From positions 124,001 through 188,000 of the forward strand of contig JAYWIR010000016.1 of assembly GCA_036172245.1 (NCBI GenBank): 64,000 nucleotides of DNA. Direction: 5' to 3'. The stretch is from Raillietiella orientalis (Eukaryota). The notes beneath the pieces are model-generated. The model was not told the origin of the DNA. It searched no databases and worked only from the letters and a program-made list of their open reading frames with translations. Shown piece after piece: positions 10,580 through 48,114 of the stretch. Both the position numbers and the translations under genes were made by a program. Each line of letters starts with the position of its first letter. Positions within the stretch are counted from its first letter, which is position 1.

Positions 10580-10881
10580 CGCAGCTGGATGCGTAGCCGG
10601 TGTGAGCGGAGGCAGTGCGCGTGCGCGAGGAGCTTTCATGCAATGTGGCGCCGCCGCCGCGCGCTTGCGTAGTGTGCGTTCGGTGCGCGCGCGGATCTCT
10701 CTCCCGCGCGGGTTTTTGAACTCCTTGAGACGGATCGCGGCAGCATGCGGAGGCAGCGCTCCGCTCCTTCCTCTGTCTGTGTTCCCTCTGCTGCAACCGC
10801 CCCGCCACCTTCGCCTCCTCCTCTCCTCCCTCCCCGCGTTGCTGTGACCGACATGACGGTGGCGAGCAAGACGGCCGCCAA

Positions 10882-10920
<39 letters not shown>
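10882..10920 (+). repeat. (GAC)13 trinucleotide repeat upstream of the ptc ATG
   Basis: Read directly. An imperfect continuation runs to ~11004. Confidence 0.95.
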
Positions 10921-10923
<3 letters not shown>

Positions 10924-11037
10924 CAAGAAGGAGAAGAAGACGAGGACGGCGACCGCGACGAAGATCCTCATCTCCGCGACGACGACGACGAAGACGATGA
11001 CGACGGCGCTTTCCCTGTTCCCGAGCCGCCGGACACA

Positions 11038-14000
11038 ATGACTCATCCCAGTTGCCCCGTCCAAGACTCCTCCGAGCTCAGAGCTCACGCGAAGGGACTA
11101 TTGAGCGACCCGGACCTGCTCTGCAGACCCAGCTGGACGGACGCCTCCCTAGCGCTTCGGCAGATCCACAAAGTGAGTCTCTCCTTCTCCTTCTCTCGGC
11201 CCCATTTGCGTGTGCAAGGCCCCCGCGAAGGGGAGATCGGTCTCGCCGCAGCCGGTCTCCTTGGCAGCGGCTGCCGACGGACCCGGCGGCGTTCCCGTGT
11301 GTCCCCTCACGCTCTCTCCCGTCCCCCGTCCATCCTGGGAAACTCGCGGTGGTGGTGGTGGTGGTCGTCCTTCCTGGCCGGGAGGCTCGGGCTGGCTCGC
11401 AGTTGCTGCCGGCTTGGTGGGAAGAGGAAGGGCAGGTGGAGAAGCAGCCTTCGTTTACCTCCGCCAGCACTCCCAGCGCCGCCGTGCTGGACTCTTTGCA
11501 GGGATGCAGCACATCCCCCTCTCCCTCCCACCTCCTCCTCCTCTCTACTCCTACTGCTGCAGAAGGCGGGAAAATGCTCAGGAAGTGTAGGTATCTCAGC
11601 GCCAGTGTGGCCATCCAGACGTGCAGCCTTCTCCCGTCGTTTGCTGAACAGGGGCGAAACTACCCCTTTCCTCGTCTCCCCCCCTCCCCCTTTCCACTTC
11701 GTCACCCACTTCCGTAGCACCTCGATGGGTGCGAGGCTGGAATCGCGCGTCGGGCGCCAGGTTCCCGGACTAGTTTCATCCCACCGGGACGAGGGAGGCG
11801 AGCCCAGTGCTCCGGATATGGGCGGGGAAGCGTATAAGGCTGGGATAAGTCCAGCAGAGCCGCAGCAAGGGGCGAAGACTGACCCGACACCAACCAATGC
11901 CCCCTCGGAGTGTGTAAGAGAAGCGCATAGGTCTGCCAGAGCGTAGGGCCGGGAGGTATTGTCTTCCAGCGTGTGGCATCCTCTCATTTCCATGCATCCC
12001 GTGCTTCACGCAACTGTCCAAGAGGATGGCAACCCCTTCGCCTCGTCTTCCCGAACCTTCTGATGCTCTCGTCGTTTCAGGGAAGAGCCACCGGCAGCAA
12101 GCGGTCGCTGCGGTTGAGATGCAAGCTCCAAGCCTCCTTCTTCTCCCTGGGATGCCTCATCCAGCGAAGGGCCGACACAGTCCTAGTCCTGGGAGCCCTT
12201 CTCATAGGCATGTCTTGCGTAGGACTGAAGTCCATCACCGTGGAGACGGATGTGGAAGTTCTCTGGGTGGAAGGTGAGCGAGAATCCTCCTCCGCAGTGG
12301 GAGAGGGAAAGGGAGTTTACGGATCGTGTGTGTGTGTGTGTGGGGGGGGGGGGAAGACTTCGTTCCTTTTATGTCTACGTCAGCAATCCTTTCCGCTCCC
12401 TCCTCCCCCTCCCCCTCCTCCTCAAGTGAGTTGTTGCGCGCTCTTGAGCTTCCCGCCGAGTCGCGCCCACCCTCGTGGAAGCTGCGCCGCCGTTGCAGCG
12501 GAAGGCGGCGGCTTCGGGCTGAACCGGTAGGACGGCTGTCGGAGGAATGGAGGAGACGCCGGTCCACCGGGGAGGAGGGGGACCGCTGCATGCTGTTCCT
12601 ACCCCATTTTTTCCCGCATCATTCCACGCTCTCTTTTTTTGGGGGGGAGGGCGCTTGTGTTTCGGACCTCCTGGAAGTCGCCTCCGCCTTCCTCCCTTCC
12701 CAAATGGAGCGAAAGGCCGAGTTCCTGATGAGACTTCTCGCGTCACGCAGTTTTTCGCCTCGTGCGCGCGAGGCCGCGAGCGTTTGCGTGGCCCGGTTGC
12801 CAGAGCTGTCCCTCCGTACCACGCGCCTGCCATCGCGCGCGCGAGGCGCTTGGTAACCATGGGGCACGCCGTATCTGCCCAACAGCGGTGTAACAATGGC
12901 CGCCGCCTCGCGTGTTGTTTTCCACCGTTGCGAGGCGAGAGAAAGAGCGCTGTGAGGGGGGGGGGAGAAGAGGAGGGAAGAAATCGGAACCAAAAAGAAA
13001 AAAAAAAAAAAACGCACACACACACACGAAAAAAAAAGAAAAAAACGCATTGGGGAGAGGCTTTCGCCACCCGTCCACGCCACCGACGGTAGCAACGCAG
13101 CCATCGGCGGTTGTGTGCACAGACGTGCACAGTGCGACGCTCGCCTATTTGTGTCGAAACCTCGCCGCCGCCGCCGCCTCTGCCGCCTTTTCCCTCCAAC
13201 CTCCCCTCCCCCCCTTTCTCCCTCATCCCCTCTTGACCGAAAACGTCTCAATTCATCGGACGGGACCACACGCGTGGAACGTCGTCGTCTCTCCGTCGCC
13301 GCCGCGAGGCGTGCGCAGCCGGTGAGTCCTGGGAGGTATATGGCTGAAGGAAAAGGAGAGAGAGAGGGAGGGAGAGAAGAGGGAGAGAGCACGAAGGAGG
13401 GGGAAGGAAGGAAGATGAGGAGATGAAACTGGGGGAAGACGAACGCGTCTGGCCTCCGCTTTCGTTGGACGAATGCCGCGATGCTGGCGACGAGGAGCGA
13501 ACTGCCACAGAGGAGGAGGTGAACAGATCGTCCGTGATAGGGGATGGGGATGAGAAGGAGAATAGGAGGAACGTGGGGTCCACTCGTCCTCTCTCGTAAC
13601 TTTGCATCCCCTCGAGGGATGGACGCGCGTGACGCACGTCGAGCATCTCTCACCCGGCAGGAGAGGAAGTACATTTCTGCATGGTAGGTGAGAGATACTT
13701 CCTGGAGGCAGAGCCTGTGTGCTCGTTCTTCAGCCGGCGGTCATGCGAAAACCTCCCCGAACCCGTTGAGCGTCCACCAAGGGATTCGTTCCTTCGGCCG
13801 CCCCGGACCAAGCCCAGCGGCGGCCTACGAGGTGGCCGGCAACCAACATCAGCGTCGTTTCCTTTCCGATGCTCTGCCTCTCCGACCCGTGGCAGCGGGG
13901 TGTCGGCGTTCACCATCTTTGCGCCGTGCCCATGCACGTGCGAGAGAGATCCACGTCGTCTCGTCATTCATCTTTGCCAGCACGCGAGACGAAGCGTGCG

Positions 14001-17000
14001 TGCCTCATGGCGGTGTATGCGGGGGTGCGCGCTTTCTTGCAGAGTCGAAGGCGCTGCGCGTTCCGTGGCACGAGCGGCACCGCCGGGCGGTGGCTGCTCC
14101 CCTTTTGCTTCGCTTTCGTGCGGTCCCTTCTTTTTTTTTTTTGCCTGCCTAGTTGCCTTCCTTTCCAGGAGGAGGTCGTCTGGAAAAAGAACTGACCTAC
14201 ACCCGCAACACCCTCGGGAAAGGTTCCGGCACCATCCACCAGATCGTCATCCAGAGCGCCAGGGAGCAGGGAGTGTCCGTCTTGTACCCTGATAGCCTGT
14301 TGCACCACATGGACGCCGTCCTGGCCGCCTCCCGTGTAACCATCGAGATGTTTGATGTGTAAGGCATGGGCGGGAGAGATGCCCTGGTGTAAAGGAGTCT
14401 TTTTGCGTTTTCTTTCCCCCTGTGTAGGCAGTGGCGTCTGAAGGATCTTTGCCTGGTGCCCACTTACCCCTTTTCTTACGAGTACCAGATCGAGCAGGTA
14501 TGCACGCCGTAAAAGGCTGTGCCGCATCCGTTCCAACCCGAGTTTGTCTTTCCAGATCTTCGAAAAGCTGTTTCCCTGCGTTTTGATCACGCCCCTCGAC
14601 TGCTTCTGGGAAGGGTCGAAGCTCCTAGGACCGGAACATGCCGTTTATTTGCCGTAAGCGTTGTCTTGGCTGCAGAGGTCGCCTTGGGTTGGCCGTCCGA
14701 GTTTTCCCGTGACGTTCGCTTGGGAGGGCTTATCGCCACGTGGGATGTTGCCCCATAAGAGGAGGAGGAGGAGGGATGGGAGAGGGGGCAATTTCTATTC
14801 GATGTGTTTCGGCGGCGGCGTACACCCATCTTCCGAGAGCGCACTGCTTCATGGGTCCATCGTTACTCTGCTACCTGCTCTCTCGCTTTGTCTATAAGAT
14901 CAGGGGAAACACCCAGTGCGCGTGGAATTTCCTTCTCAGAGCCATAAAGAGTTGGTGGTCCTTTTTTTTTTTTTTTTTTTTTTTTTTTCCTTCTTTCAAT
15001 TCGCAACTCCCGTGCAGGCCCTAAGAAGGCCCTCCTTTCCCCTTGAGCCTTCTACCCGTCGTCATTCACCCGCGGTCGCGTAGCTTCACGGATGTGAACG
15101 CGACTCACAAACAAGGGATCCTTCTTTTTTCTTTGTCCTGTTTGTCCAGCGTCTCCCGGTTGCCTTCGAGGCTTTGTCCATTTTGCGCTCTTGCTGCTGC
15201 TGCTACGGGAGCTCTTTTTTTGTACAGGTATCTTTTTTCCGTTCCAGACTGCTGAATAGTACGCGACCGCCGCCCATTCGATGGACTAATTTGAACCCCC
15301 AGAAACTGGTCCAATCTTTGAGGGACTCCTATCCGCTTTTTTCTTTCCAGCCAATCGAAGATTTTTTTAAAGGGGTAAGAGGGTGGAGGGCGTTGTTCCC
15401 GCAGCACGAACCGTGCCCTTGCAGGCGGGGATCACATCCGCCTACCAGGAGAAGCCATGCTTGGATCCGAACGACCCCCAGTGCCCGGATAGCTCACCCA
15501 ACAAAAAGTCGCGTCAGGTGAGTTCACCCTCGACCCCCTTCCCCCCCCTCGTGGTGGTGGTGGTGGTGGTGGCGGCAGCGCTTACCTTTGGAACCCTTTT
15601 CCAGCCTCCGGATGTGGGGGCGGAGCTTACCGGTGGTTGCTATGGTTATGCAGTCAAGCATATGCACTGGCCGGAAGATCTGATAGTTGGCGGCAAGAAG
15701 AAGAACAAGACTGGCTACATCCAGAGGTACCTGTCTCCTGTGGCAGCGTTCCCCAGTTTCCGGAGGGTGACCTTGTGCTCGCCGTAGGGCTGAGGCATTC
15801 CAAACTATTGTCGAGCTGATGGGGGAGAAGCAGCTCTACGAGCACTGGGCACAGGACTTCAAGGTGCACAGCGTGGACTGGTCCCTGGAAAAGGCCGCCC
15901 TGATCCTGGATACCTGGCAGGAAGAATTTCTAAAGGTGCGTTTCTTGGGAAGGGGCGAATGCTCGACGACGACCCCTACCCTTTTTCCCTCCAGGAGCTA
16001 ACCGCTCGCGTCGAAAGCCCCCGCAGCGGTAGCGGCGCGAAGACATACCGCTTCTCGTCTTTTGCAACCCAGAAGCTGAACAGCATCCTGGAGCGCTTCT
16101 CCGAAATGAGCTACGTGAAGCTGGTTGTCGCGTTCCTGCTGGTGGTGGGTGTGCCTCCCTGCGATTTTCTTACCCTCCTCCTACTCGTCTTCCCTCTTCT
16201 CCCTGCGAACTCGCCTCCTACCCGACGTCTTCTCTCCACAGATGGCGTATGCTGCAGTTGTGCTCTTCCGGTGGGACAGGCCAGCCCTATCCCGCAGCGG
16301 CTTGGGCGTCGCGGGGGTCGTCCTGGTGGCTGCGTCCGTCGCGGCTGCCCTCGGTGTCTGCCAGCTACTGGTTCGGACAGGCCTGATGATGGATTTCAAC
16401 GCTTCGACCATGCAGGTGAGTTCGAAGGAAGTGAAACCCCCTCCCCACGGCGAGGGAGGGCGGTGGCTTCTTCGGTGGCAGCGATGGCGCTTTTATCACG
16501 CGCCATTTCCAGATCATCCCCTTCCTGTCCCTCGGTCTGGGAGCCGGCAACCTGTTCTTTCTAGTCCATAACTACGCACACGTAGCCTGCGGCAACTTCT
16601 CTTACCAGGTGAGCTGCTCTCTGCGTATCCGTCCCCATCCCCCATCTCCCTCGCCTCGCGAACGGTCCTTACCCTCCTTTTCGTCTCATGCAGATCGGCG
16701 AGCTGCTGAAGAGAACTGGCGTCGTCATCTTGCTGATCTCATCATGCAACATCTTTTCCTTTCTCGTGGCTGCCATCATACCCATACCGGCCCTGAGGGC
16801 ATTTTCCCTCCAGGTACTCGAAGGGTGACTGTGAAAATCGGCAAAGCAGCTTTCCCCCACCCACCCCTGATGTTTCCTTTCCTCCACCCAGATGGCTGTT
16901 GTGGTTACTTACAACCTCTTCACCGTGCTGGTGATTTTTCCGGCGGTGCTCTGCCTGGACCTGCGACGGAGATCGGCTTCCCGGTTCGACCTTCTGTGCT

Positions 17001-20000
17001 GCTTCAAGGCCCCTGACGGTCCCGTTCCCAAACCGAGGAGTGCTACCGACGAAGAAGCGCGCAAGAAATACCTCGTCCCATCCGCGGCCGTGGACGATCA
17101 AACGGCCATGTCATTGCTGGACGCCACAGAGGTATGAGGCAGTCGGTCTGGGGGAGGAGGGGAGGGGGAGTTGCGCTGGCGTGCTTTCGTCTCCGTTGCA
17201 CGGGAACGGGAGCTATCCTTTTCCCGTGCCGCCACAACTCGGAAACGTGCCAAGAGTGCTCGTCGCTGTCGTCGTTCGAGGTTCGGCTCGAAGGCGCGCG
17301 TTCCCTTGGCCTGCTGGCAAGGACGACCGTGCTCGGCGAATCGCGTGTGTTTCCCCCCCCCCCCTCTCCTCGTGTTCTGTGAACGGATCGGTCACGCGCG
17401 CGCGACCTGTGTCCTGCTTTCGCGTGTCGAGGGTGCACACGAGCAGGTTCCGTGCAAGAGCACCGTTACGTCAACTCTTTGCCGGAACGGTCTTCTTGCA
17501 CGGGCGCGCTGTTGCGTGTGGGTGCGGACCGGCTGTAAATTCGCACAGCCCCCGCGAGCCGCCGCCTTTCCAGAAAACGAAGGACGCGCACAGCGATCCT
17601 TTTGCTGCCTGCACAAAAATAAAAAAGGTGAAAACGAAGAACTGAAGTTCCTGGAAACTCGTGCTTGCGCGTGCAATCGAGTCCAATTCTAATCTATTTA
17701 ACACCAATTCTCGTAGCAGCATACTACCGTTCAGAAAGAGGTCGTTCACGTGCTTACGTGTGCAGAGTGTTTGGTAGTGGGTGCACCGCGCTACTGGGAG
17801 GTTCTCTGAACACTCCCTTAATCCCCCCCCCCCCCCAAAAAAAAAAAGAAAAAAAAATTGGTCAGTAGATGTTTCATCCAAGAGCTTACGATGCCAAAGC
17901 GAGTTCTTTAACAGGACCGTTCATTCGGATGACGTGTGGCCCTGCAAGCGCGCGTCCATTCAGGCACCCCGCCCCCACCCCCCGGCTCCCAATGCACGCT
18001 TTCCTCGACGGTGAGAACGAATTCTCCGGCAGACCGTTGCTGACTCCTTCGATCGCACTTGCCTTCGTGGCGCCCGTGCTCTGTGTGGAAGTGTGCGTCG
18101 GGGGAGGTTACACCACCGCTCCTCCCTGCTCCGCTCGTGGTGGTGCACGGGGAGTGCGCACCGGGGAAAACCGCGCGACCGCGGTCTGGCAGCGTGACCT
18201 TTTTCCGGTTCCCGGAGTGGCGGCGTGCATCCCGAGAGTTTTTCCACGCAGAGTGCCCGTCAGCTCCCGTTTTCGCCGTCTCGAGCTGCTGGGATTTCGC
18301 GGCGGCGGGTCATTCTGCCGTCGTCGCTTCACCCCAGTTTCCGTGGGCAGCGAGATTTCTTGGTCTAACTACTGGGACTAACGGGTTGCACTGACGGCCG
18401 TCCGAAGATCAGAACCCCCCTTTTCCCCTGGACTGAACGTTCTCTTGGAGCGCTCGCGGCGGATTTTCGGGACTGGGGCAAGAGGCCATGCTAGTGGAGT
18501 GTTTTCAGCGGTGGAAGGGGGAAGGGGACCTCTACTTCCTCGGCATGCCCGCGGGCAGCATTGCAACCTCCCAGGACCCGCTTCGGATTATAAATGGAGG
18601 GAGAGGTGTGCAGCTTCAGGAGTGGGGAAGCTCCTGATACCGATGTGGTCCGCTTCGCCCGTGGGCACCTTACGTGTTCTTCAGCGTTGACTCTTGCTCC
18701 TCTTGATATTTAGTGTGCTGGAGAGCAGGGACCTTTTCGCTGTTTCTCAGAAACTTCTAGAATGGAGGGCGGAGCAATCGGCGTGCAGCTCCGTTTTCCT
18801 TTGTTCGCGATCGGGAAGGGAGGGGGGGGGGGGGTTGAACCGGGAATGCGGGTGAAGTCCCCAGGTGTGGCCATCGCGCTGGCCGCGACAGCGGGGGATA
18901 GGGGGCGAAGCACGAGGGAGACTAGGAAGTGGAAACCGCTGATCTTGCCTCTTATGCAGCTGGAGGGAGGAGGTCTCTGGTGCCACCGGGCGTGCTTCTG
19001 CGCCCCGACTACCAGTTGCCCTCGTCGCGGAAGCCTAGCTGTCGTTTAGGCCCCTCTTTTGGAGCGCCTCCTTGCGGGGTGCTTCACGCCGACGTGGGGT
19101 TCCGCCTTGCCACCCATGCCACCTGACTCCCGTCGCTGCTGCTGCTGCTGCTGCTCGTCGGGCACATGCCTGTGTATATCGCTGCCGCCATTTCAGCCTT
19201 GCGTTAGTTTTGGGGTAGCCCAAGTGGCGCTGGGAGTGGGAGAGCGTGAGGACGCAGGGAATGGACAGAAGAGGATGTCGAACTCTCCCCGAGTGCCCCT
19301 CGTCCGTCTCCGCTTCGTTGCCAAGAATTCAAATAGCCTCCCGCGGTTTCCCTACCTTGTTCCCTGCGGTTTGCCTCTTTTTGGCCGTTCACGCTGGCCT
19401 CGTGACCCGGCGTCCCCTGTCACCGCGTTTCGGAAGCGTCCCTTCGGGGTTCTCTTCACAGGAGTGAACGGGAGTGGTTCCCTTGCGGGTTCCCTCCGGA
19501 GTAGAAATCCCTACTAGCGGATCCTTTCCGCATTCCCTTCGGAGGAGTTGAAATGGAGAGGACCACCTCCCATTAGGGTGGTGTCCCTACAGAGAGAATG
19601 AGGAAGGAGATTTCCTTAGGGGTTCCCCTTCGGAGACAACCAGGGTGGGAGGTGATCTTCATTTCCTGGGATTCCTCCCCAGGCGTGAGAGAAACGGATT
19701 CGGAGCCCTTCCTGGATTCATAGGGCGGACCCCCATCCCGGGGTGCCCCCTATTCTGAAGAATTACGCTGAAGATTACACGTCCCCCTGTGGGGTTGTCG
19801 CAGGGGAGAGGCTGGAAACTAAACAGTGTGTTTAAAGAGCCACTTGCGCCGCGAGGCACGCGACCAGCTCTGAGGTACTTAGAGAACCAAGAAAAAGAAA
19901 ACTCTCAAAAAAAAAAGCTGGAAAGAAAACAGCGAAGACAGAAGAAAAAGAAGACCCCAAGGATTTCCATCGTCCCGGCGACTCCCGAGTATGCGCATAT

Positions 20001-20152
20001 GGGTCGCCGACGAGACATGTCTGGCCCTCCAGAAACCGGATCGTCCTCTTAAAGATGATCCTTGCGACTCCGATGGTTAACATGACGACTCCCGGGAACG
20101 GCTCCTGCCCTATTTCCGACGTCGAGTTGTCCTAACTGAAACCAAGGCAGCG

Positions 20153-20185
<33 letters not shown>

Positions 20186-23100
20186 AGCCCCGGTGAAAAG
20201 GTGGGCTGGGGGAGTAGGAGGAGGAGAGTTTCCGTTGGTCGGATTTTCGAGATCAAGTAGTTGGGAAGGGAGAGAGCGTGGTTTGTCCACGCAAGTGGTC
20301 AGCGAGGAAAGCTCTTTCCGGAAACCTCATGCTGCCACAGTAGCTCGTCTCTCGTTTATCTCAAACAGGTTGACTGCGCTTCCCCCCCCCCCCCCCCCGT
20401 CCTCCTCGTGCCTCCCTCTGTTCGTCCCAGTGACTCCCGGATCGAGTTTTCAACTCCCTTTTTGCTCGGAGCCGCGCTGCGCTCTTTGGGTGCGCAGCCC
20501 TCCCTTCTCGGCCAAGGTTTCCGCGAGTCGCCATCGTGGAACCGGTGGTTTCCGTGGGTCGGCGCTACACGCCTTCACTGCAATGGGAGGAAGAAAATGC
20601 GATCCACGAGTAGTCGGTCCGCGGATCTCTGTCGTCACGCCACCCTCCTCCACTCGCCCTCTGCGCCTGGTTTTTTTTCCAGGGGTCCAGGAAGACGGGC
20701 AGAGCAGGATGATTCTTCGTGACGGCAGCGTTTCGTGGAGCGCCCGTGGTTTGCGCGGTGCTCCCTCCTTTCCCGTCCTCCCTCCCGCTCCTACTCGAGA
20801 CCAGGATAGCTCGACTTTTTTTTCCTTTTGACTTCTTGCCGACCATCATGAAAAAATAAACAGGAGCAGGCTTTGTTAAGGGAGGGTTGGAGTAGGGGTG
20901 GGGGAATTCCGCTTGGAGCGGCTCAAGGCGGAAGAGGGACGAACCGCTCCCTGGTGGCGAGCAGATGTGCGCGCATAGGTGCTCGCGCTGTTTCCTGCAT
21001 GCGGTAGCCGTGTGCACGACGAGGGGAGGAAGCCGAGCGGGATGCGAGAGAGAGGAGGCCCCAAAGTCGGAAGAAGCGCAGCGTTCCCGTGTATGTGTGT
21101 TTTTCTTTTTGCGACTTTATAGACATCGTGGTAGAGCGGAGAGCGAGGCCAGAGGTCGTACGTCTGCCTCGTTTGGGGCCGACAGCTCAAGGGAAGGAGG
21201 CAGGGGAAGCGAGAGGAATGAGAACCCCCGTAGAGAAGATGTTTTTCTGCTGCTATGTTTCCCCCGCTCTCCCCAAAACCCCAGCCTCCTTCCCAGGAGC
21301 GTTCCTTGGCCGCGGATCTGCCTTTTTATCCTCCTCCTCCAGCCATGCGCTCCTTCCGGACTCCGTTCAAGAGGACGTGCGCGTCTCACCGCTCCTGTTG
21401 TTGCGTCTGGTGCTGCGAACTAGTACGCCGGAGTCACGCACTTCTCGTGGAAGACCTTTCTTTTAAAAGGAGGAGGAGGAGGAAAAGGAAACATTCCGTC
21501 TCGCGACTTCTTTTTTTTTTTTTGGCTCGTTGAGTACCTCAAGAGCCGTCGCGTACCTGGCGGCTCACGCAGCTCTTTGACACTGTTCCACGCTATCCGA
21601 GGGTGCGTGCAATTCTTCAAGATAGGGGAAGAGACCACTCTTTGAACCCAGGAAGAGTTCGGAGTCCGTTCCATTCACGAGGAATCATCGGAGGGGTCCA
21701 CTCCATTTTTTTCTTCTCCAGAGGGAACCACGAATTCTCTTAGGTTGATGCTGTAGCCGCACGCTCCACTCCGTAATCGTTGCGCGCCGCGCATGGCTTC
21801 ACCCCCACTCCCTGCGGACTCCCCACTCGCAGGGTAATAGGGAGTGCCGACGACACTCCTAGCGTGTGGTCCGTTCCCGTGATTTGCTCCTTTCGCGCGG
21901 TGTGTTCCTCTTGATAGCGGTGGCTCATGCTTCTTTCCCTCTACCATCACCTAACCCCTTTACTCCTGCCTCCCCTCCCCTCACCTACAGCTTTCTTCCC
22001 CATTTCATCGCCTATCCTTTTATCAATGGAGGTTCCAGATCTGTGATCGGTAATTCCTTAGGGGAGCGCTTGGTTCCGCATGCCTCTACGGTCGCTGCCG
22101 AAACGTGAGTCGTGGACTTCGCGATAGCGAAGTGTGACATGTTGCACGCGCGCGCCCGAGCGCGCGCGAGAGAGAAAGAGAGGGAAGGGGGAAACCAGAG
22201 CGAGCGCACGGAAGGTGGGCGTCTTCCCCCATCTGCTCGCTCTTCTGATGGTCTTTTTTCCTGTCCCAAGGAATCCGGGAAGAGCGCGCAGCCAGCCTTG
22301 CTCACAGCAGCGTCCATCTCCACCAAGTCTGCGGATCCCTTGAGCAGTCCGGGCTACCACTGTCCCTGGGACCTGGGCTCCCTGGCAAGGGACTACTATG
22401 CGAACTGGCTACTTCTGCGATCCGTGAAGGTCTGTGTACACTGGACGAGCCGATCTAGCAATTCTCCTTTCTCCTCCCCTCTTCCCTTCCTCTCTTCCCC
22501 TGAAAAGATCGTCGTGCTGGTGGCGTTGGCAGTGCTGCTGGCCGGCAGCGTGTGGGGCGCAACCGTCCTCAAGAACGGCCTCAACCTGACCGACGTGGTG
22601 CCCCGCAACACGAGAGAGTACCAGTTCCTGTCGGCGCAGTCCCGGTACTTCGGCTTCTATCACATGTACGCCGTCACCAAGGGGGATTTCGAGTACCCCA
22701 CGAACCAGAAGCTGCTTCACGAGTACCACGACTCCTTCACCCGCGTTCCCAAGATCATCAAGAACGACGACGGCGGACTGCCCCCCTTTTGGCTGAGCCT
22801 GTTCAGAGACTGGCTGATCGGCCTGCAGAAGGCTTTCGACCGCGACCGCACCCAGGGGTTGATCAACGTGGACGGCTGGCTGAAGAACGCTTCCGACGAG
22901 GGCGTGCTGGCTTACAAACTGCTCGTCCAGACGGGCCACGTTGACAATCCAGTGGACAAGTCCCTAGTGAATCACGTGCGATTGGTGGACGCGGAAGGTG
23001 TGATCAATCCGAAAGCGTTCTACAACTACCTTAGCGCCTGGACCACGAACGACGCGCTGGCCTACAGCTTTTCCCAGGCGGACTTCCATCCCGAACCCAA

Positions 23101-26100
23101 AAAGTGGTTCCACAACTCGGAGGATGTGGACCTGAAAATTCCCAAATCTCAGCCCCTTGTGTACGCTCAGCTCCCTTTCTTCCTCAACAACCTGGCCGAC
23201 ACTCCGGACATCACCAATATGATCGAGGCGGTAAGGTCCATATGCCTCCGCTTCGAGGACCGAGGTCTCCCCAATTTCCCCTCCGGCATTCCCTTCACCT
23301 ACTGGGAGCAGTATCTGGACCTGCGCTCCTTCCTCGTTCTCGGACTGAGTTGTGCCCTGGCGGCTGTGCTCCTGTGCGTGGGTGTGGTCCTCGTGAACAT
23401 TGGCGCGGCGATTCTCGTTGCTTCCGTGATCTTGGTGACCATCATCGAGCTCACGGGGATGCTAGGGTTCCTGGACATCCGCCTGAGCGCCATCCCCGCG
23501 GTCATCCTTATCACTTCTGTAGGCATCTGCACCCAGTTCGCTGTTCACATCGTCGTGGTGAGTGTGCGCGAGGGAAGGTCTCGTGCGAGAGCGGGAAGCA
23601 GCTCCTAACGTTCTCCTCCCCCCTTTCCAGGGTTTCCTGACGAGCATGGGAAGCAGGGATCACAGGACGCGCGTCGCTCTGGAGCACATGCTGCCGCCGA
23701 CGTTGCACGGAGCCATCCCTTTCTGCCTAAGCATTTCGGTGCTTCTTTTCTCAGATTATGACTTCATCATAAGGTGAGGCGCGCTCCGAGAAGGAAGAAG
23801 GGTCGGGGCGCGTAAGCGCGCTGGAGCCAAAGGGAAGTGGTGGATCCAAGCAGCGGAGAACTGCCTGCAGCAGAGCTGGCAGCCGCGCCTCTGTCTCCTT
23901 CCCTCCTCCCTCCCCCCCGTTCGCTCTTTTCTCACTTCCCTTTCGCGAGGAAGACAGGAAGCTTCTCCCACCATCACTCCGCCCCGTGCCACCCTGCTGC
24001 CTCCACGCGACCTTTTGCATCAAGGAGGGGGCGCCAAAGGCTGTTCGCCGTCTGGGTGCTCGCGCCGCCGCGGCAGCTGCTCGGGAAGGTGTCTTCTTGC
24101 CTGCTTCCCCTCGGCCTTTTCGCAGCTTTGCTCCGAACGTGCATCTCCCCTTTCCCTGTGCCGGTCCGGCCGCTGACGTGCTCTCCTTCGAGTGACACTT
24201 GGGGAAGCAAGTGCGCATGACCTTTTCCTGCGTGATGCTCGCCCGCTTTGCGCCTCGTCGCTTGCGTCCGCTGCTGCGGTCTTCTCGGAGAACACGTTCC
24301 GCCTTGGCGGTTCTCTTTGCACATCCCGGGCGCGTGCTTTCCGAGGCCACTTGGGGTCGCGAAGGAGGATCCTGGCTGGACTTCACCTCGACCGCCTCGA
24401 AGCGGGCCACTGTGCCGTTGGGCCGCCCCCTCCCCCAGGTTTGAAAAGCCGTGAGAAGGACAGGAAAGTGCTAATAAAATGTGTTTTTTTTTTAAATCTC
24501 TCTTTCTCTCTCCTCGTTACATTCACGTCGTCTCTGGGCGACCACCTGTGGAAAGCGGACCGCATCAGTGTTTCGCTTCCCCTCCCCTTTTTCCCCAAGC
24601 TGGAAATCTGTCCGAGTTGGAGAACGTGTAGCATTCCAGTTTCTTTCTTTTCTTTTGAGGGGGGGGGAGGGGGGGCTTTCTTTCTTCGAGGCCGCCGCCG
24701 GCGAGGGCTTTCCCACCACGCCGCCGCGTACGAAAGCAATTGCAGTTTCAGCGTACGCGCTCTCTTGCGATTAGGAAACGTCCGCGGACTCTTGGCTCCC
24801 GTGCGCCTGCGCCGATCGAACGCTGCACCCGTGTCCGTATCGGCGAGAGGAGCATCTTCTTTGCAGCCTCCAGACGTTCGCCGTGCAGCGGGTCGGCAGC
24901 GCGTCCGCTGTCTCCGGGGCCTCTGTAGAGACCGTGGTGCATGCAGGCATGGTCGGTCGAGGAGCCGCCTGTTGTCTTCCCCTCTTGAATTCTTTCGCAG
25001 AGCGGACACACCGAACGCCTCCCAGTTCTCCGTGTTCCCCTGAAACGCCTACGACTTGGGGCCCTGGGGATGTTTTATTTCCCTCGCCATTGTTGCCATT
25101 GCTGTCACTCTTTGCTGCCGAGGTCACGCCGCTTTTTCTTTCCCCTCTCTTTCGCTCTCGTTGCGTTCCGCCCGAGTTTCACTTTTCCGCAAGTGTACGT
25201 ACCTTGCTGTCCAGAGGGATTGCTGGAGGAAAAGGGGGGTTGGTTGTCTCGAGTCGGATGTTCTGGAACGAAGTCCCGTCTCTCTTGGTGACGTCGGTAA
25301 ACATCTCGGGAGAAAAGTGTCGCAAGAGCGAATCCAAGTTTCCGAGGTACTGCAGTTGGCATCTCTCTTTCACACTCGTGAGAGTTGAGCTGCGTTTTCC
25401 CAGTTCTTAATTCGATACCCTGCAGTGTTAAAAGGCAACCTTTCAAGGCTGGGTTTCTCGTCAAACCGAGCTGTTGAGATCATTCCAGCAGGGACAGCGT
25501 CTTTCTGTTCGCCTGCAAGATGATCATCCGGAGTCGAACTGCACAGTTGGACCGCGTTGTTGTTAATGCACGTAAAAGTACTGGAATAGTAGAGATGTAA
25601 AGGTTCTGATTCATTTATTCCCAGGGAATAGAAGGGATGAAGTGTTCCCAGGTTGGTTTTTAGATCTGTCTTCCATCCGGTTGACTTGAGATTCTTGGCG
25701 TCTCAAAAGAGCTCGCCTCCATGAAAATCCAACGCAGGAGCCATTATTTGTTTTACCATTTGATGTCATCCTCTTTTTTTTTTTTTTTTTTTTGCCTTGT
25801 TCAATTGACTCGAGTCTTTCAAGTGCTCAGAAATACGTCGAAGGATCGTTTGGCATTCCGTGAGGGGAAAAGAAAAAAAAAAAAAAAATCGCATATGCAC
25901 ACGAAAAGGTTACGACTTTGAGCTTCCTTGAAATTCTGCAGCGGACGGTGTTCTCTGTGCTTTCGCCATTTCTCATCACTCGATGTTCAATGGTCTTCGA
26001 GCATGTGGGTTTTCAGAAGGGCACTTTTCGTTCGGTCTGCCTCGAACCGGGCAAGGCTCCCTCGGGTAATGTGCGGGCGCAGTAAGCGTACTTAGGGGCA

Positions 26101-29100
26101 GGGAAAAGCTGTGGAGGGTTCACCCGTGCGCACCACACGAATGCCCGGAAGTCGCAGGGCTCGCGTGAAACAGCGAAAGAAGTGCTCGGATGTACACCTC
26201 TGTTTTGGATGGCCGTAGGTTGGCCTTTCTTGGGGATCGCGCAGTCGCCACAAAACAAAAACGTAAATCTTCGTCAGAATGGGTTCTTGTCGAAGGCTGT
26301 GTCATTCTTCCGGGAGCGTAAAGTGAAAAAAGCTGCGGATCCGCGTGGGATCAATCGTCTTTGTTTTCCGATCCGTCTCGCATGAAAGTGTAGCCGCCCT
26401 TGCGCATCCGCAGGATCCCCGTGTGCTCCCCTGCGTTCCCGGGTCTCGGCGTGGGATGAGAGCAGTAACCCGTTGCTAGGGAACTTCGCTGCTGCAGGCT
26501 GTCCCCGGTCTTCGCTGCTGCAAAGGCTGGGGACAGTTCCACGTTGCGTCTGTGTGTCACCCCCCCCCCCCCCCCCAGGCCAGTTGCGTTCGCCCCGGCG
26601 CACCCGGGTGTGCACTTAAACAGTTGCGACAGCCTATTTAATGATCTCATTGCAAGTGGGATTCTTTTTATGATGGGGAACGGAATTTTTGGCATATTTA
26701 ACGACACGCTGCTCGTCTTTCAGTTTCAAAGCTATAATCATGCTTCTTAAATCATTTGGAAACTGTAAAGCATTGTCTCTCTTCAACGTAAACAAACTGG
26801 AAGCGCGCTGCATCGCCATTTTGACCCGTGACGTCATTCCCCGTCCTTTCCCTCCACCCCCCCCCCCTTCCTCTTCCCCCCAGTTGTTATCTTTCATTAG
26901 TGACATTAAGATATAAGTTTCTTTCTTTCTTTCCTTTTTTTTGGTTAATGTATTTGGCTGCATGCATGCTTGCTTAGGATTTGTCCAGGGAGACGTGTGT
27001 TGGTGATTTAGTGTTTCCACTGGACAATGATTACGATAGCGTGCTCAATTCTATCACGTGACGGAATCAAGATTTATGTTTATTGCAGTTGTTGTTCCAG
27101 TCACGTTTGCGCGGCACTGCGGAGCACGGCACGGAATTGTAGGTTTCGGTTGTGCACCCACGGTCCGGTGGGATCGTGGGGCCTTTCCCTTCCCCAGCGC
27201 AGGGAGCTTCGCGAGACCGCTGCGGGTCGCGTAGGTTTGCATGACCGGGTGGCAGGCGAAAGGTTTCCCTCCCTCCGGAGCAATTCGTTCTCCCTCTCAG
27301 AGAAGGTCCACCGTTTTATCTGCTCCTGCAATCTCCAATAAAATTCCCCCCCCCCCCTCCGTCCCTCCCTCTCACACTGGTAAATAATTTATCATGCTCA
27401 TTAGGTGCGTTTGCTGAGTTACGTGTGAGAGAACGGTGAAACGGTCCGAATTAATTACCTTTGCTGTTGTTGTACGTTGGTTTCTGGTGTGTACGTGTGT
27501 GTACGTGTTCGTGACCGTGCGCACGCTTGCAGTAGCATTTTATTCGTAGTGGTTTTACGTACGCGGTATATTTGCAAGGGGGACGTGCTCGCCTTTTTTC
27601 GCTTCCTTTTTTCCTTTTTGAAAAAAAAAAAAAAGGGGGAAGAAAGGGAAATCTGCGGTGTCCCGGAATCCGCTGTTTGCTGCGAGTTTTGTCCGTGTCG
27701 CCCGAACCTCTCTCCCTCTCGAAGCGGTTCCAGGGCTTCGGGATGCTGTGCGCGATGCGTCGCGTGTCGGCAGACTCGCTCCCATCCTGACGGCTCATCA
27801 TCCCTTTGCCGCCTCCCATTTCTCAGCGCTCTCCCTTTTTTTTGCCTCCTCGCGGCGGGCGCGTCCTCCTTGGCTTGCCAGCAGATTCGCGCACCCGGGC
27901 GGGTCCTGCGGGAGCTTCGCCCTCCCCTCGCCCAGCATGCACGAGTACCGCTGGGGGGAGTAGGGTGGTAATTTGGGAGTGCAGGCCCTCAGCGCGCTTC
28001 GGGCCGGGGATATCAGCGGTGATCTTCGTCCTCTCCTTGTCGCCGTGCGCCTTGTGTGCCTCCCCCTCCCCCTTCGTTTTTCCTTTTCTTTCTCCCCAGG
28101 AAGGTCCCCTCACCGCCTTTTTCTGCGGTGCGGCGGCGTGGTGGGGACGGAAGTGCTCCTCTCAGGAAGTTTCATCTCTCCTCACCCGTTGGAAAGAATC
28201 TTCCGTGGAGCCTTCCGGCTCGCAGGCCGTGCCGTTCCGCGCTCTTTGCTTCCAGAGGCTGCCGCTGCGTTCCCGGTCCCCCCCTTCCGCGTGGCTTTTC
28301 TTCCGATGCTCCGTGCTCATTTCTTCGCTCCCGCTCATTATCCCCGTTGTTTCTGCCGCTCCAGCCCGCCCTTCAATCCTTTCTTTTCGCCATCGGAGCG
28401 GCCTCCTTTGCCGCGCACGAGTGAGGAGGGATCCTTCCCTCCCATCCGGGCTTCCCGCCGCCGCTTCAATCAGCCTTCAGCCGGCAGCTGGAAGTCCGCG
28501 GGATGATTCGCCGTGCTCTTGGGAATTGCTTGCTCGCCGGGGTATCCCGCCGCCTCCAGGAGGGAGGGAGAAGACGCCTTCGTTTCCCGTCCGTCGAAAC
28601 GCCTCTTCCCGGCCCTACGGGGACTAGAGAACTCTCTTAAATAAATCCGGGGATTCGCTCCTCCGACGGGAAGTCTTCCCATCCGTCGTCAGGCGTCCCT
28701 GGCGACGGTCGCAGCCTAACGCATTCGGCACTCAGTCCCCCGGGGTGATTTCGTACCCGCAACGCGCCTCCCCACCCCCCTCTTCCCCCTTCCCCTGTGA
28801 ATTTTCTGATTTTTTTTTCCCCTCTCGTCCTTGCGCTTGAATTTTTCTTTCTTTCTTTCTTTCTTTTTTTTTTTTTGACAGGGTGGGAGTGGGGAGTGAG
28901 GGTGGGCGTGAGGAGGGAGACGCGATCTCAGGAGACTGTTCGAGCCCGGAAGGCGATGGGACCGGAAACGTTGCAGAATTCTCGCAAGAGGAAGCAGAAA
29001 AAAAAGACAGAGAGAGAGAGAGGGAGAAGGGGGGGGGGGCAGCAGAGTGACCCACGCGAGGCCCGGAGGGCGGGCGAGCCTGGAATTGGATGCTCCTTCC

Positions 29101-29460
29101 CCCGCCTTCCCACTCGTCGACTCTGTAGGGACCGACCGGCCGCGCGCACTCCGCCCAGAGTTTCGCGCTCCTCTCGCGCGTGCGATGGTGGCGCTTTTCT
29201 GGATTGTCTCTCTCCTCGCCCTTCTCTCGCGCTGCCAGGGAATGCGGGCGCACACCCGAAGAGGAGCGGGGTGTGGGGAGGGGGAGGGGAGGGGGCAGTT
29301 TAGCCTGCCTCTAGCCGCCGCCTCCGCCGCACCGAGTGCATCCTTCATGATGAATGCCGTCGTGTCACACGGGAAAAGGACGCCGCTAATTGAGCCATGA
29401 AAGTCAGATCGATACTCCGCGTGACGCTCGCAGGCAGGGCGAACCGAAAGAGGGGGGGGG

Positions 29461-29491
<31 letters not shown>

Positions 29492-32400: not shown

Positions 32401-35222
32401 AGAATGCAGTTCCGCTTCCATGCAACGTGGGCAGAGCTCAGGAATAGCTTGCGCCTAGGTTGCGGCCATCCGTTCCCGCGGAACACTTTCGGGAAAAACA
32501 GAACACCCAGCTTTTCGCCCCCCCCCCCTCCTCCTCCTCCCTTTACCCATTTCTCTCCCCCCCCCCCCTCTCGACACTCCCGTTGCTGTCGTCGCCACGT
32601 TCCCGGTGGTGGAAGCGGTCTCGTTACACTCGCAGGGACGCGCGCCCTCGCCGATGCAAGATGGATGTCGAGACGATGGGCTGTAGGGGAACGCATTCCC
32701 CGACGGCCCTGGCAACGTCTCGCCTTCTCCATGGCTAGGGCGTCGGCAAACACGTAGCAGCAGTCCGGCCGTTGTCAGGAGTGGAAACTTTCCATGCGCG
32801 CGTGGATGCAAGCAAGGGTGCGAGAGTAGGGCGTGAGAAGGCAGGAAGCTCGGATTGTGGGGGAAGGGGGGGGGGGAGGGTGACGCGGCATTGCGGCTCG
32901 TGTGCCTTTTAGGCGAACGCGATGCACATTGCAGACGCCCTCCCAGCCCTGCCTACCTCCCGATCCCCGAAGTCATCCCCGAGTCCCTCGCCCCCTTTGC
33001 TCCTGTCACTCTGTGTCCCTCGCTTTCTCGTGTTCTGGCTCAGCGTCTGGCCTTCAGGATGGGAAGAGCCATACTCCGACAAAAAGGCGATCTCTCAGGT
33101 CACCTGCTCCCCCCCCCTCCTCCTCCCGTTCAAGCGAAGAGCCGTTCCCATCGCTCGCCGCAATTTTTCCTCTGAAAGATAAAATGTAAAAGAACGGCGA
33201 CTCGGCGTCCGCCGTAATTCACTCCCCGCTCTCCGGAAAAGAGCCTTTCAAACGACCGTATTTTATCTTCCGAGTTCCCGGTGCCTCCATATTTTATTCA
33301 GCGAGTGGCTAGCAGGAGGTGGGAAGACCGCGACGACGGCCAGGTCCTGCGCAAGCTGTGCAGATCGTAAATCGTCCTCTTCGGCGTCACCCCGCGCTAT
33401 CAGATAAAACACGATCGGCGGCGACCTGCAGTCACCGGCAAGTTTTTTCTCTCCCTCCTTCCTCCTCCTCTTCCTCCCTCTCCTCCCCCGACCCCTCATC
33501 TTCCGGCCGCCGCCGAGAGCAGACTGATCTTCCGCCGATCCGTAATGTGCCGTTGTCGGGTCTCTTCGAGGGGCTCTTTTTTGCGTTTTCCTGCAGGCGA
33601 CCAGCATCATCCTTCTGCTCCCCTCCTCCCAGCAGTAGGGGAGACGTTGAAATTTCTTCATCAGCCGCTGCCGATGGAGAATAGGGAGGTAGCGCCGGAG
33701 AAGAGCGACGCCTCTCCTCCGCCTCGTGCGTCAGCAGGGAGGGGAGGGGCTGGGTGTGCGCAGCGCGTGCTTGGTCCCAAGGAACTCGCCTGGGGGCGCA
33801 CATGAGAGAAGGCATGACCTCCCCAATGCTCTGCGGGCATGCGAAGCCGCGTGGCAGGTTTTTCCCCATTCCTGCGTGCGTTTCCTGTGCAGAGAGATCC
33901 TCCCCCTTTTCGACAAGGGTACAAGAGCACGCACCTCACAGCTAACCCACGAACCTTCTGTGTATCTCTAATGACGAAACCCCCTTTTTTTACACCGGGA
34001 GGGGGGGGGGGAAGAGAGGGACTTCTTGGTGCGTGATACTCCCCCCCCCCCTCCCCGAGAGCAGCGTCCGTATGCATGGTCCGGGCACTCCTCTCCCTGT
34101 GCTTTCGTGCGACTCGTGCTTTTCTGGAATGTCTCCCACGTCTTGGTGGCTCCTGTTTTCCGCTGGCTGTGCCCACGAGTCGTCTCCCACGGCAGGCCAT
34201 CCGTGTGGGCCCGGGAAGATCCCCCCATTCCCTAACGAAAGAACTTTCCTGTTCCAGGTATTTCTTCCTCGTCATCATTGCCTTGCTGCTGTTCGGTCTG
34301 CTGAACGGACTTGTCCTTTTTCCGGTCCTGCTCTCTCTGCTGGGTCCGCGAGCTGAGGTGAGTGTCGCCGCCGACCTTGCGCCGTGGCCGCTACTGAAAT
34401 GCGTCTCGTGGTTCAGGTAATCCTCGCCGACAACGGGAATCGTCTGCCTTCCCTCACCCCTTACCCTTCTCCCGTCTCCCACGTGAAGGACCGCCACAAA
34501 AGTGCTTCGGGAAACTTGAACGTTCCCCTGAGACCACCTCTCTATTACAAGAGTGGTCCTCGTCGGATGAGCTCCGACATGTCTCTCAGTACGATTACCG
34601 AAGAACCGAACTCTTGGCAGTCCAACTCCCATGAGATAGTTGTGCAGCCGGAAGTCGTGGTGGAAACCACGACGTGCCCCTCGAACTGCAGCAGCACTAG
34701 CGCCAGTGAAACGTCCAGCGGCTCAAGAGGATCTCACGTCACGACCAAAGTGACGGCTACAACCAAAGTGAAGGTGGAGGTGCATTCTTCAAGAAGTGGT
34801 AAGCAGTCCGGCTCGAAGCGAGCTGGGGACTTTGCTGCGAGGAGAGCCGGGAAGAGGGGAGAGCCGCCCCCCTCTTCCCGGTTGCTCGGGCTGGGAACAA
34901 GGGACTGGGACGCTTAAAGGAGAGGGAGGATGCGCCTGGACGCGATCGGGGTGGTTAGGGGACGGGTTTCGGAGCTGCCCTTCTTCCCGAGTTCGCCTGG
35001 TAAGGCAGGAGGATCTTCGTCATGGGGAGCAAATGCAGTTGGAAGATGCGCGCGGGGATGAGACGATGCGGACGTGGAATGGACGCGGTGCATCGCTTTC
35101 TCTCTGCAGGTGCCAGCCGCGGCTGGCTCTTGCCGCGCGAATCTGGCGATGGCCTTGGCGCTCCCGCGAAGGAGGACGCTTTCTCATCTCACGGTGACCG
35201 TGCAGACGGGTGCTTGTCGTAA
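11038..35222 (+). CDS. ptc: Patched-family Hedgehog receptor (12-TM RND/SSD protein), 20 coding exons, ~1300 aa
   Basis: Exons joined by hand at GT-AG sites with consistent phase: 11038-11172, 12081-12273, 14169-14358, 14428-14497, 14556-14653, 15248-15374, 15425-15517, 15605-15726, 15788-15935, 15995-16144, 16242-16415, 16513-16608, 16694-16813, 16892-17131, 22271-22429, 22508-23557, 23631-23773, 34258-34357, 34417-34798, 35110-35222 (3903 nt). Patched hallmark motifs: [133 protein letters not shown]. The last exon and possible extra exons in the 17132-22270 intron are less certain. Confidence 0.95.
16242..16980 (+). other. ptc: Sterol-sensing domain (approx. TM2-TM6) of Ptc, exons 11-14
   Basis: [20 protein letters not shown]...[17 protein letters not shown]...[10 protein letters not shown]...[38 protein letters not shown], which matches the Patched SSD pattern. 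Confidence 0.9.
22508..23557 (+). CDS. ptc: Ptc exon 16: TM7, extracellular domain 2, TM8-TM10
   Basis: Part of ORF 22112..23608; [73 protein letters not shown]. Confidence 0.97.
29452..29500 (+). repeat. Poly-G followed by a (GA)n microsatellite in ptc intron 17
   Basis: Read directly. Confidence 0.85.
34534..34545 (+). other. ptc: PPxY (PPLY) motif in the Ptc C-terminal tail, candidate Nedd4/Smurf-family WW-domain ligase site
   Basis: CCA CCT CTC TAT in the frame of exon 19. PPxY motifs are known in Patched cytoplasmic tails. Confidence 0.6.
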
Positions 35223-48074: not shown

Positions 48075-48108
48075 ATGCAAATTCTGAACTATTGTATCTG
48101 TTGGCGCA

Positions 48109-48114
48109 AATAAA
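48109..48114 (+). terminator. Candidate Topors poly(A) signal
   Basis: AATAAA 34 nt after the stop codon. Confidence 0.55.

Follow-up and report, generated by a model that had tools for sequence, protein, structure and literature searches.

Can a Patched protein that has lost every acidic residue of its cation site still be a working Hedgehog receptor, or must it be a transport-dead decoy? The question is raised by a gene in the 64,000-nucleotide stretch of DNA analysed here (the window), which the initial annotation, made from the letters alone, took to be a candidate natural decoy. The gene is a genuine Patched, the Hedgehog receptor. In sequence searches, it matched solved human PTCH1 with an E value of 2e-105 and NPC1 with only 3e-5, and the best 120 of the 649 Patched relatives recovered at E<=1e-20 are all arthropod Patched. 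Hydropathy peaks of the protein match TM1-TM12, TM1 and TM7 are each followed by a large ectodomain, and the protein aligns collinearly with full-length relatives, being 58% identical to Daphnia Patched over its whole length. Among the best 120 of the 649 relatives, the ectodomain 2 exon is at most 67% identical to arthropod Patched, and database protein searches, whatever the length class, gave relatives of 68% identity at most. With exon-sized pieces as the only queries, the sterol-sensing domain PF12349 (TM2-TM6) scored 20.6 bits versus a cut-off of 22.3; relatives carry both PF12349 and PF02460.

The spliced model spans 11038-34917 on the + strand, with 19 exons and an uninterrupted ORF of 1284 codons, which bears out the original estimate of a frame intact over ~1300 codons. 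The interval first reported, 16513..23545, does lie inside Patched, but the gene is far larger. All 18 introns are GT-AG, and two of them are long (5.2 kb and 10.5 kb). Exon 1 was matched by three of the ten guide proteins in tblastn searches; at the exon 14 donor, several candidates score alike, and the stop codon of that ORF comes after 17134. The exons and the residues of interest are as follows.

11038..11172, +, exon 1, start codon and N-terminal cytoplasmic segment; no other in-frame ATG in the ORF block, donor GTGAGT
12081..12273, +, exon 2, TM1; tblastn matches from 10/10 guide proteins, GT-AG junctions
14169..14358, +, exon 3, ectodomain 1; guide-protein model
14428..14497, +, exon 4, ectodomain 1; guide-protein model
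14556..14653, +, exon 5, ectodomain 1; guide-protein model
15260..15374, +, exon 6, ectodomain 1; alternative acceptor at 15248, the two acceptors scoring 186 and 182
15425..15517, +, exon 7, ectodomain 1
15605..15726, +, exon 8, ectodomain 1
15788..15935, +, exon 9, ectodomain 1
15995..16144, +, exon 10, end of ectodomain 1 and TM2
16242..16415, +, exon 11, TM2-TM3; five residues more before TM4 than in the guide proteins
16513..16608, +, exon 12, TM4, GxxxDD changed to GxxxGN; CAG acceptor, GTGAGC donor
16546..16551, +, codons GGC AAC, G508 and N509, opposite PTCH1 D513/D514 (HMMER alignment, 6e1h)
16567..16569, +, H515, equivalent of PTCH1 H520 (Site 2), retained (alignment)
16694..16813, +, exon 13, TM5
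16736..16738, +, I543, opposite PTCH1 T551 (alignment to PTCH1)
16892..17089, +, exon 14, TM6 with the first part of the cytoplasmic loop; 3' end uncertain
22271..22429, +, exon 15, cytoplasmic loop before TM7; 5' end uncertain, extra loop exons possible in the 5.2-kb intron
22508..23557, +, exon 16, TM7, ectodomain 2 and TM8-TM10; E 2e-105 to PTCH1
23534..23536, +, codon CAG, Q1030, opposite PTCH1 E1095; neighbours C1028 and T1029 also unusual
23631..23773, +, exon 17, TM11; D1081 (PTCH1 D1128, Site 2) retained
34258..34357, +, exon 18, TM12; preceded by the 10.5-kb intron
34417..34917, +, exon 19, C-terminal tail and stop codon; PPLY at residue 1158 (34534-34545)

PTCH1 positions were assigned by HMMER alignment to solved human PTCH1, in 6e1h numbering. 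Site 1, the central cation site of the RND-type transmembrane core and the presumed power source of the protein, lacks all its side-chain ligands: D513 is replaced by G, D514 by N, E1095 by Q, and T551 by I. The GGC AAC and CAG codons were thus read correctly at the outset, lying exactly opposite D513/D514 and E1095, and the TM4 and TM10 translations given for them were confirmed from the sequence; only the residue numbers have moved, from 512, 513, and 1048 to G508, N509, and Q1030. The Gly of the TM4 GxxxD(D) motif is retained, and GxxxE/D of TM10 is absent, with Gln instead. Table 1 of PMC9949057 gives T551 as a minor Site-1 contact in PTCH1; among 119 relatives, this column holds T in 76, S in 19, A in 19, K in 3, R in 1, and I, the residue of the window protein, in only 1. 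Both residues of Site 2, described in PMC9949057 as PTCH1 H520 and D1128, are retained as H515 and D1081. The H520 column is His in 105 relatives, and the next four residues listed are found in two each. In TM4, TM5, and TM10, no acidic residue was seen that might compensate. Near the site, polar residues occupy TM columns that are otherwise conserved as apolar (A479Q, A502S, and V1029T; the alignment also shows G1028 changed to C), and these changes look more like remodelling than decay. The substitutions are not bypassed by another exon within the window: a six-frame HMM scan recovered the known TM4 and TM10 exons at E values of 1e-5 and 2e-13, found no alternative to either, and gave next best matches at E>=1.

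The window Patched departs from its relatives at just 3 of 176 conserved ectodomain columns, versus 26 of 112 in the TM core. For near-invariant columns, the figures are 19/97 in TM segments versus 14/240 in the ectodomains (Fisher p 4e-4), and the protein ranks 2nd of 93 in changes at near-invariant TM columns. Its TM-core terminal branch (0.78) is the longest of 28 taxa, and its TM/ECD branch ratio is 1.76 versus 1.03 tree-wide, a moderate excess of branch length. Ectodomain conservation is equal to or above the median of canonical relatives. The surplus of changes at near-invariant TM columns would fit relaxed constraint on transport. The claim that the gene is under selection is upheld by its intact ORF, its canonical introns, and the near absence of altered ectodomain columns. 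That the changes are sequencing or assembly errors, or the early decay of an incipient pseudogene, is very improbable: the high GC3 of the gene (0.74) might favor it, but the four site codons lie in three exons and, like the 26 other conserved-TM changes, are all in frame, and the stop-free reading frame, the introns, and the ectodomains are not those of a decaying gene. The amino-acid composition is also near the relatives' mean, and GC-biased drive therefore fails to explain the residue changes.

In the Drosophila ptc-S2 allele, Smoothened repression is lost, but Hedgehog is still sequestered. The ptc-S2 mutation is D584N (PMC4362464), affecting the first TM4 Asp of GxxxD as in the window Patched, but it is a single induced mutation, and that Asp is the only triad carboxylate of Drosophila Ptc. 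Engineered mouse PTCH1 NNQ (D499N/D500N/E1081Q) is described as binding ShhN with SMO suppression abolished (10.1101/352443), and D513Y and D513A/D514A PTCH1 appear as inactive or tested forms in PMC9949057 and PMC8654371. The window Patched is uncharged at the same three positions as NNQ, with every cation-site carboxylate replaced, and the initial annotation was right that the whole charge triad is gone. It differs from NNQ in having Gly rather than Asn at the first position and ~26 further conserved TM-core columns altered, and in being a natural gene in an arthropod setting, in which the loss of two of the three charges is often tolerated. Read as a natural equivalent of NNQ, it would combine a conserved ectodomain with no cation-coupled transport, either as a Hedgehog sink beside a canonical copy or as the sole Patched; we hold this to be possible but somewhat doubtful. 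The more specific proposal is that this Patched, probably a paralogue, binds and sequesters Hedgehog as a sink, gradient shaper, or dominant-negative and, its transport being dead, does not inhibit Smoothened. The neutral or apolar state of all Site-1 side-chain ligands, the strong contrast of well-conserved ectodomains with an eroded TM core, and the length of the TM branch all argue for it; the PPxY motif, retained as had been reported, would permit endocytosis, and ptc paralogues occur in crustaceans, e.g., barnacles. Comparative data point both ways on whether repression is lost, and we regard the proposal as unlikely. No second ptc locus was found inside the 64-kb window by tblastn with the guide proteins, the TM core is still ~51% identical between the window Patched and distant arthropods, and Site 2 is retained.

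The step from triad loss to dead transport presumes, moreover, that the triad is indispensable in arthropods. Among the 161 Patched sequences covering all three triad columns, three acidic residues are found in only 35, two in 47, one in 67, and none in 12. Arthropod triads vary, and their loss is recurrent. By implication, the initial annotation had other Patched proteins retain the first TM4 Asp; in fact, that Asp is missing in 50 of the 115 aligned arthropod relatives, being His in Hymenoptera, Gln in Lepidoptera, and Asn in spiders and Artemia, and GxxxD(D) is thus no defining feature of arthropod Patched. TM4 reads H-D in 37 of the 115 (those named are Hymenoptera), and the TM10 column is Glu or Asp in no more than 39 of the 117 arthropod relatives aligned there. 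Drosophila Ptc is the classic functional arthropod Patched. The state initially given for it, with the first TM4 Asp but without the TM10 Glu, was recovered in the Drosophila montana/virilis/hydei cluster (TM4 D-H, TM10 C). Because Drosophila Ptc keeps one triad acid and few relatives keep three, the inference that a lost triad means dead transport is weakened. Daphnia (D-N/D) and Artemia (N-G/D) also have reduced triads, and these proteins share with the window Patched the family, 12 TM segments, two ectodomains, and a C-tail motif; the difference is that Drosophila, Daphnia, and Artemia each keep at least one triad acid, and the window protein none. The loss of two or three acids, together with the contrast between TM segments and ectodomains, is likewise seen in Drosophila, Hymenoptera, a gall midge, and an eriophyoid mite, and these triad-poor proteins are annotated as their species' Patched, which argues against a sink. 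The few-acidic state requires at least 11 changes on the tree. After phylogenetic correction, 8 independent pairs do not establish that triad loss goes with TM erosion (p ~0.25), which also counts against the sink. None of the 161 relatives has Gly at the D513 column. Overall, the interpretation in the initial annotation is partly supported.

In the phylogeny, the window Patched nests inside pancrustacean Patched. Its sister group is unstable, being either barnacles plus copepod (SH-aLRT 94) or branchiopods (SH-aLRT 85), both supports falling below the 95% mark. The position is one expected of an orthologue rather than of a diverged duplicate branching beside a canonical copy, which speaks against a sink. 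Two ptc are present in barnacles in the tree of database relatives. The isolation of the lineage, with an intact protein and conserved ectodomains, could also suit a rewired pathway, in which a sole Patched would have a Hedgehog-binding or sterol/lipid role like nematode PTC and no transport-based regulation of Smoothened; C. elegans Patched homologues are described in PMC3078328 as functioning without Smo. However, the nematode proteins are reported to require their GxxxD motifs (PMC3078328; for PTR-18, PMC8104386), and the ectodomains and C-tail motif of the window protein are typical of arthropod Hedgehog receptors. We consider such rewiring quite unlikely.

Most likely, the window Patched is its lineage's working Hedgehog receptor, with what appears to be a remodelled, uncharged ion site. 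On this explanation, purifying selection maintains an intact Patched gene in a non-hexapod pancrustacean, and the gene is the extreme of an arthropod trend in which triad acids are shed singly while the ectodomains stay conserved. Taken as a whole, receptor function included, the explanation has in our judgment about an even chance of being correct, and different ion coupling is rated likelier than a decoy. The sequence establishes what the gene is, that it is intact, which residues it carries, how rare they are, and how far the ectodomains and the TM core differ in conservation; Hedgehog binding, Smoothened repression, and altered coupling are our inference. Hedgehog would still be bound via the conserved ectodomains, co-receptors of the Ihog type would probably take part as they do in insects, and the receptor would still be internalised via its PPxY tail. 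Smoothened would still be restrained by a cycle independent of carboxylate-bound cations; this could use the peripheral Site 2 pair, H515 and D1081, plus an uncharged polar pocket, for which N509, Q1030, the newly polar T1029, C1028, S502, and Q479 are candidates. Alternatively, the driving force may be other than that proposed for vertebrate PTCH1. The NNQ phenotype, the D513Y and D513A/D514A forms, ptc-S2, the longest TM branch, the changes at near-invariant TM columns, the lack of a compensating acid, and the barnacles' two ptc were counted against this explanation. If the window Patched is the sole Patched and still restrains Smoothened, carboxylate ion coupling would be dispensable for Patched function in at least some arthropods.

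The 12 triad-less sequences include a gall midge and an eriophyoid mite. Most of them fall in an eight-row mite-like Patched subclade (SH-aLRT 96) adjoining the oribatid mite Oppia, whereas the gall-midge Patched is sister to the Drosophila representative within the fly clade (SH-aLRT 99). Two sequences without a triad acid resemble the window protein in a TM core that departs more than the ectodomains: conserved columns are altered at 26/112 in TM versus 9/176 in ectodomains in Sitodiplosis mosellana (P0110), and at 57/108 versus 23/176 in Fragariocoptes setiger (P0157). They are, however, independent lineages with other replacements (N-H/S and H-T/I, respectively). The mite-like group has Glu at the T551 column, possibly a relocation of charge, to which the window Patched has no counterpart.

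A gene model guided by ten full-length arthropod Patched proteins describes the window Patched as a single plus-strand gene, with the following features.

11038-34917, plus strand: Patched gene, 19 exons, 1284 codons
16513-16608, plus strand: small exon carrying TM4, with a CAG acceptor and a GTGAGC donor
16546-16551, plus strand: TM4 codons GGC AAC (G508 and N509 of the model)
17090-22270, plus strand: long intron (5.2 kb)
23534-23536, plus strand: TM10 codon CAG (Q1030 of the model)
23774-34257, plus strand: long intron (10.5 kb)

The open reading frame had been called intact in the initial annotation, and it is free of internal stops, with all 18 introns GT-AG; the PPxY motif said to be kept occurs as PPLY, at residue 1158. 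The 16 introns other than the two long ones span 50-1895 bases, 12 of them being shorter than 100, and the long open frames of the 5.2-kb and 10.5-kb introns gave no match in Pfam, nor did Rfam yield anything. The junction across the cytoplasmic loop (17089/22271) is not certain, and the loop may contain additional exons, but the site residues are unaffected. Only one Patched locus lies within the window: a second ptc locus was sought on both of its strands and none was found, the minus strand being without matches. Two smaller observations concern the same model. Upstream of the start codon, its frame stays open for some 100 codons (10729-11037, plus strand); this stretch contains a long Asp/Glu run and no further ATG, and could be either low-complexity 5'UTR sequence or part of an unrecognized upstream exon. 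Exon 11 (16242-16415) is five residues longer in the stretch from TM3 to TM4 than three aligned guide proteins (two tblastn gaps).

The central cation site (Site 1) of human PTCH1 is built around an acidic triad, D513 and D514 in TM4 and E1095 in TM10, which has been described as highly conserved (PMC9949057, PMC8654371). The TM4 and TM10 codons from which the initial annotation argued that the window Patched lacks all three charges are present and translate as it said. In HMMER alignments to solved-structure sequences (6e1h numbering), the TM4 exon aligns to PTCH1 502-524, and D513 and D514 face the window G and N; the large exon aligns with an E-value of 2e-105, and its Q lies opposite the TM10 Glu. 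Ion contacts listed in Table 1 of a molecular dynamics study are D514, D513, the V510 backbone, E1095 and T551, and the same source gives H520 and D1128 as the peripheral Site 2 pair (PMC9949057). The window counterpart of T551 is Ile543, in a column where relatives have T (76), S (19), A (19), K (3), R (1) or I (1), and the Site 2 pair is retained as H515 and D1081. Polar uncharged side chains were gained in the membrane near the site (A479Q, A502S, V1029T and G1028C), and a search of TM4, TM5 and TM10 for a compensating acidic residue found none; E1001 in TM9 is common to many relatives of every triad class. The initial annotation allowed that an alternative exon might supply a normal TM4. 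The complete set of 2262 six-frame peptides from the window was searched with HMMs made from the TM4 and TM10 exon segments of relatives; the known exons were recovered (E 1e-5 and 2e-13), and the next-best matches were noise (E>=1), which removes this route by which the reading in the initial annotation might be refuted.

Similarity, architecture and phylogeny all place the window gene in the Patched family. Scanned with Pfam as exon-sized pieces, it gave a PF12349 score (20.6 bits) just short of the 22.3-bit cut-off. Every one of the best 120 of 649 relatives is an arthropod Patched, with identities of up to 67%. With the exon of the second ectodomain as the query, the best identities were 67% in the "longer" length class and 68% in the "near" class of fragment-length proteins; the C-terminal tail exon had a best match of 47% (Artemia), and the best match in a library of 50%-identity representatives was 62%. 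Trees place the window Patched among non-hexapod pancrustaceans with an unstable sister group: in one, which carries a long-branch warning, it joins barnacles and a Calanus-like copepod (SH-aLRT 94), and in a broader one its partners are two branchiopods, Daphnia and Artemia (SH-aLRT 85). Neither GxxxDD nor GxxxE/D is found in the window protein, but many arthropod members also lack these motifs, which thus do not define Patched in that group.

Triad residues vary widely among these relatives. Among the best 120 of 649, the TM4 pair is D-D in 37, H-D in 37 (those with names being Hymenoptera) and D-N in 19, with D-H in 5, Q-D in 4 (Lepidoptera), N-N in 2 (spiders) and others fewer; the TM10 column holds His in 64, Glu in 21, Asp in 18 and Gln in 4. 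The first TM4 Asp is absent from 50 of the 115 relatives in this set that could be aligned. A wider but taxonomically unbalanced pool, comprising every retrieved sequence of at least 700 residues that covers all three columns (n=161), has three acidic residues in 35 sequences, two in 47, one in 67 and none in 12; Gly at the D513 column occurs in none of the 161. Despite the imbalance of the sample, complete neutrality of the site is clearly rare yet not unique. By cluster look-up, Drosophila Patched is of the D-H/C type, in agreement with the statement in the initial annotation that it keeps the first TM4 Asp and lacks the TM10 Glu; a single carboxylate is sufficient in the best-studied arthropod receptor. 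Look-up also gave D-A/Q for the copepod Tigriopus, D-S/E for a Calanus-like form, and a triad-less Patched in the eriophyoid mite Fragariocoptes setiger. A "patched-like" protein of the gall midge Sitodiplosis mosellana (P0110), with N-H in TM4 and S in TM10, is left with no acidic residue; within the fly clade it is sister to the Drosophila representative (SH-aLRT 99). On a 57-row tree, the state of having no more than one acidic residue changes at least 11 times by parsimony. Repeated erosion of the triad in arthropods is a by-product of the analysis whose usefulness may exceed that of the gene itself; no discussion of it was found in open-access full texts, although comparative studies were not targeted and we do not claim that it is unpublished.

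In a mite-like group of Patched sequences from the representative library (P0175, P0176, P0177, P0178, P0179 and P0197), the triad columns are also without an acidic residue, and a Glu occupies the TM5 column that corresponds to PTCH1 T551. This Glu may be a relocated ion-binding charge. The three members placed on a tree, P0175, P0177 and P0179, form a clade (SH-aLRT 100). The window Patched differs from this group in having made no acidic gain in TM4, TM5 or TM10.

Constraint on the transmembrane (TM) core and on the ectodomains of the window Patched was compared by several measures, which agree in direction and vary in strength. Compared with seven references that evolve slowly, identity is 0.63 for the ectodomains and 0.51 for the TM core, a ratio of 0.81 that lies at the low end of 30 taxa, although flies reach no more than 0.81-0.84. 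At near-invariant columns, defined by leave-one-out agreement of at least 90% of relatives, 19 of 97 are changed in the TM core and 14 of 240 in the ectodomains (Fisher p 4e-4); the TM fraction ranks second among 93 full-length sequences, for which the median is 3%. On a fixed tree, the terminal branch measures 0.44 in the ectodomains and 0.78 in the TM partition, where none of the 28 taxa has a longer one; the resulting ratio of 1.76, against 1.03 tree-wide, is second after that of a spider. When conserved columns were set on sequences with two or three acidic residues, the window Patched departed at 26 of 112 TM columns and 3 of 176 ectodomain columns; medians for the family are given in the table.

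Table. Median departure at conserved columns by number of acidic residues at the triad (columns set on 82 sequences with two or three acidic residues; site columns left out)
Acidic residues; n; TM; ectodomain
Three; 32; 3%; 4%
Two; 34; 5.5%; 2%
One; 66; 12%; 3%
Zero; 10; 57%; 24%

The TM core is thus really but moderately accelerated, and the ectodomains are held very tightly. GC-biased composition was rejected as a cause: GC3 is 0.74, but GARP/FYMINK is 0.25/0.22 against means of 0.25/0.23 in relatives. Across the family, the TM excess rises with the loss of acidic residues (Spearman -0.77, uncorrected for phylogeny). Phylogenetic correction leaves eight independent pairs, of which 3.4 run in the same direction, 0.1 in the opposite one and 4.5 show no difference (sign-test p ~0.25); because the family rows are non-independent and the pairs so few, a link between triad loss and TM erosion is not demonstrated. 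The facts fit a Hedgehog receptor whose ion site is completely neutralized and whose ligand-binding half is subject to ordinary, strong constraint. Artefact or decay is a very improbable explanation.

Current models hold that Patched inhibits Smoothened through cation-driven sterol transport via the acidic triad (PMC9949057, PMC8654371). Engineered mouse PTCH1 with a neutral triad (NNQ) is reported to lose SMO suppression and retain ShhN binding (10.1101/352443), and the Drosophila allele ptc-S2 is given as D584N in PMC4362464. From these mutants, the initial annotation proposed a transport-dead Hedgehog decoy. The neutral triad on which that proposal was built stands, but the transfer of the NNQ and ptc-S2 results is weakened by the arthropod comparison, since arthropods routinely dispense with two of the three charges and the annotated Patched proteins of whole lineages have none. 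By analogy, the window Patched would function like NNQ only if the vertebrate requirement applies in its lineage. A non-repressing Hedgehog sink, most plausibly a paralogue, is nevertheless a serious rival that we hold possible, if doubtful: the neutral site and conserved ectodomains speak for it, the variability of the triad in arthropods against it. Should the window Patched turn out to be a second copy, it would be a Hedgehog decoy that arose from the very receptor it competes with. A rewired pathway we consider unlikely. Our preferred reading, to which we give a roughly even chance, is that the window Patched is the working Hedgehog receptor of its lineage, with a coupling that would be remodelled or different.

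Three results bear on the model of cation-driven transport: the triad is complete in only 35 of 161 sequences, reduced to a single residue in Drosophila, and absent in 12 including the window gene. Receptors that naturally lack the triad and have well-conserved ectodomains are separation-of-function variants that need no engineering, and the window, gall-midge and mite genes could reveal whether Smoothened repression outside vertebrates needs ion coupling at Site 1.

Exact Gli/Ci-like sites were absent, and those with at most one mismatch numbered 16 against 12.7 expected, using a 9-mer consensus. Rfam, tRNA and tandem-repeat scans of the window found nothing. Composition switches sharply at 42000-58000, where GC is 0.33-0.40 as compared with 0.54-0.66 over the ptc gene and its upstream flank; this block includes a 381-codon open frame (46929-48071, plus strand) with no Pfam match. 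Among 69 other long open frames of the window, Pfam gave one match, ubiquitin-like: the frame at 54363-54803 (minus strand) matches PF18036 (E 7e-8) over the first 37 profile positions only, and probably represents a single exon of a gene next to ptc that lies within the AT-rich block.
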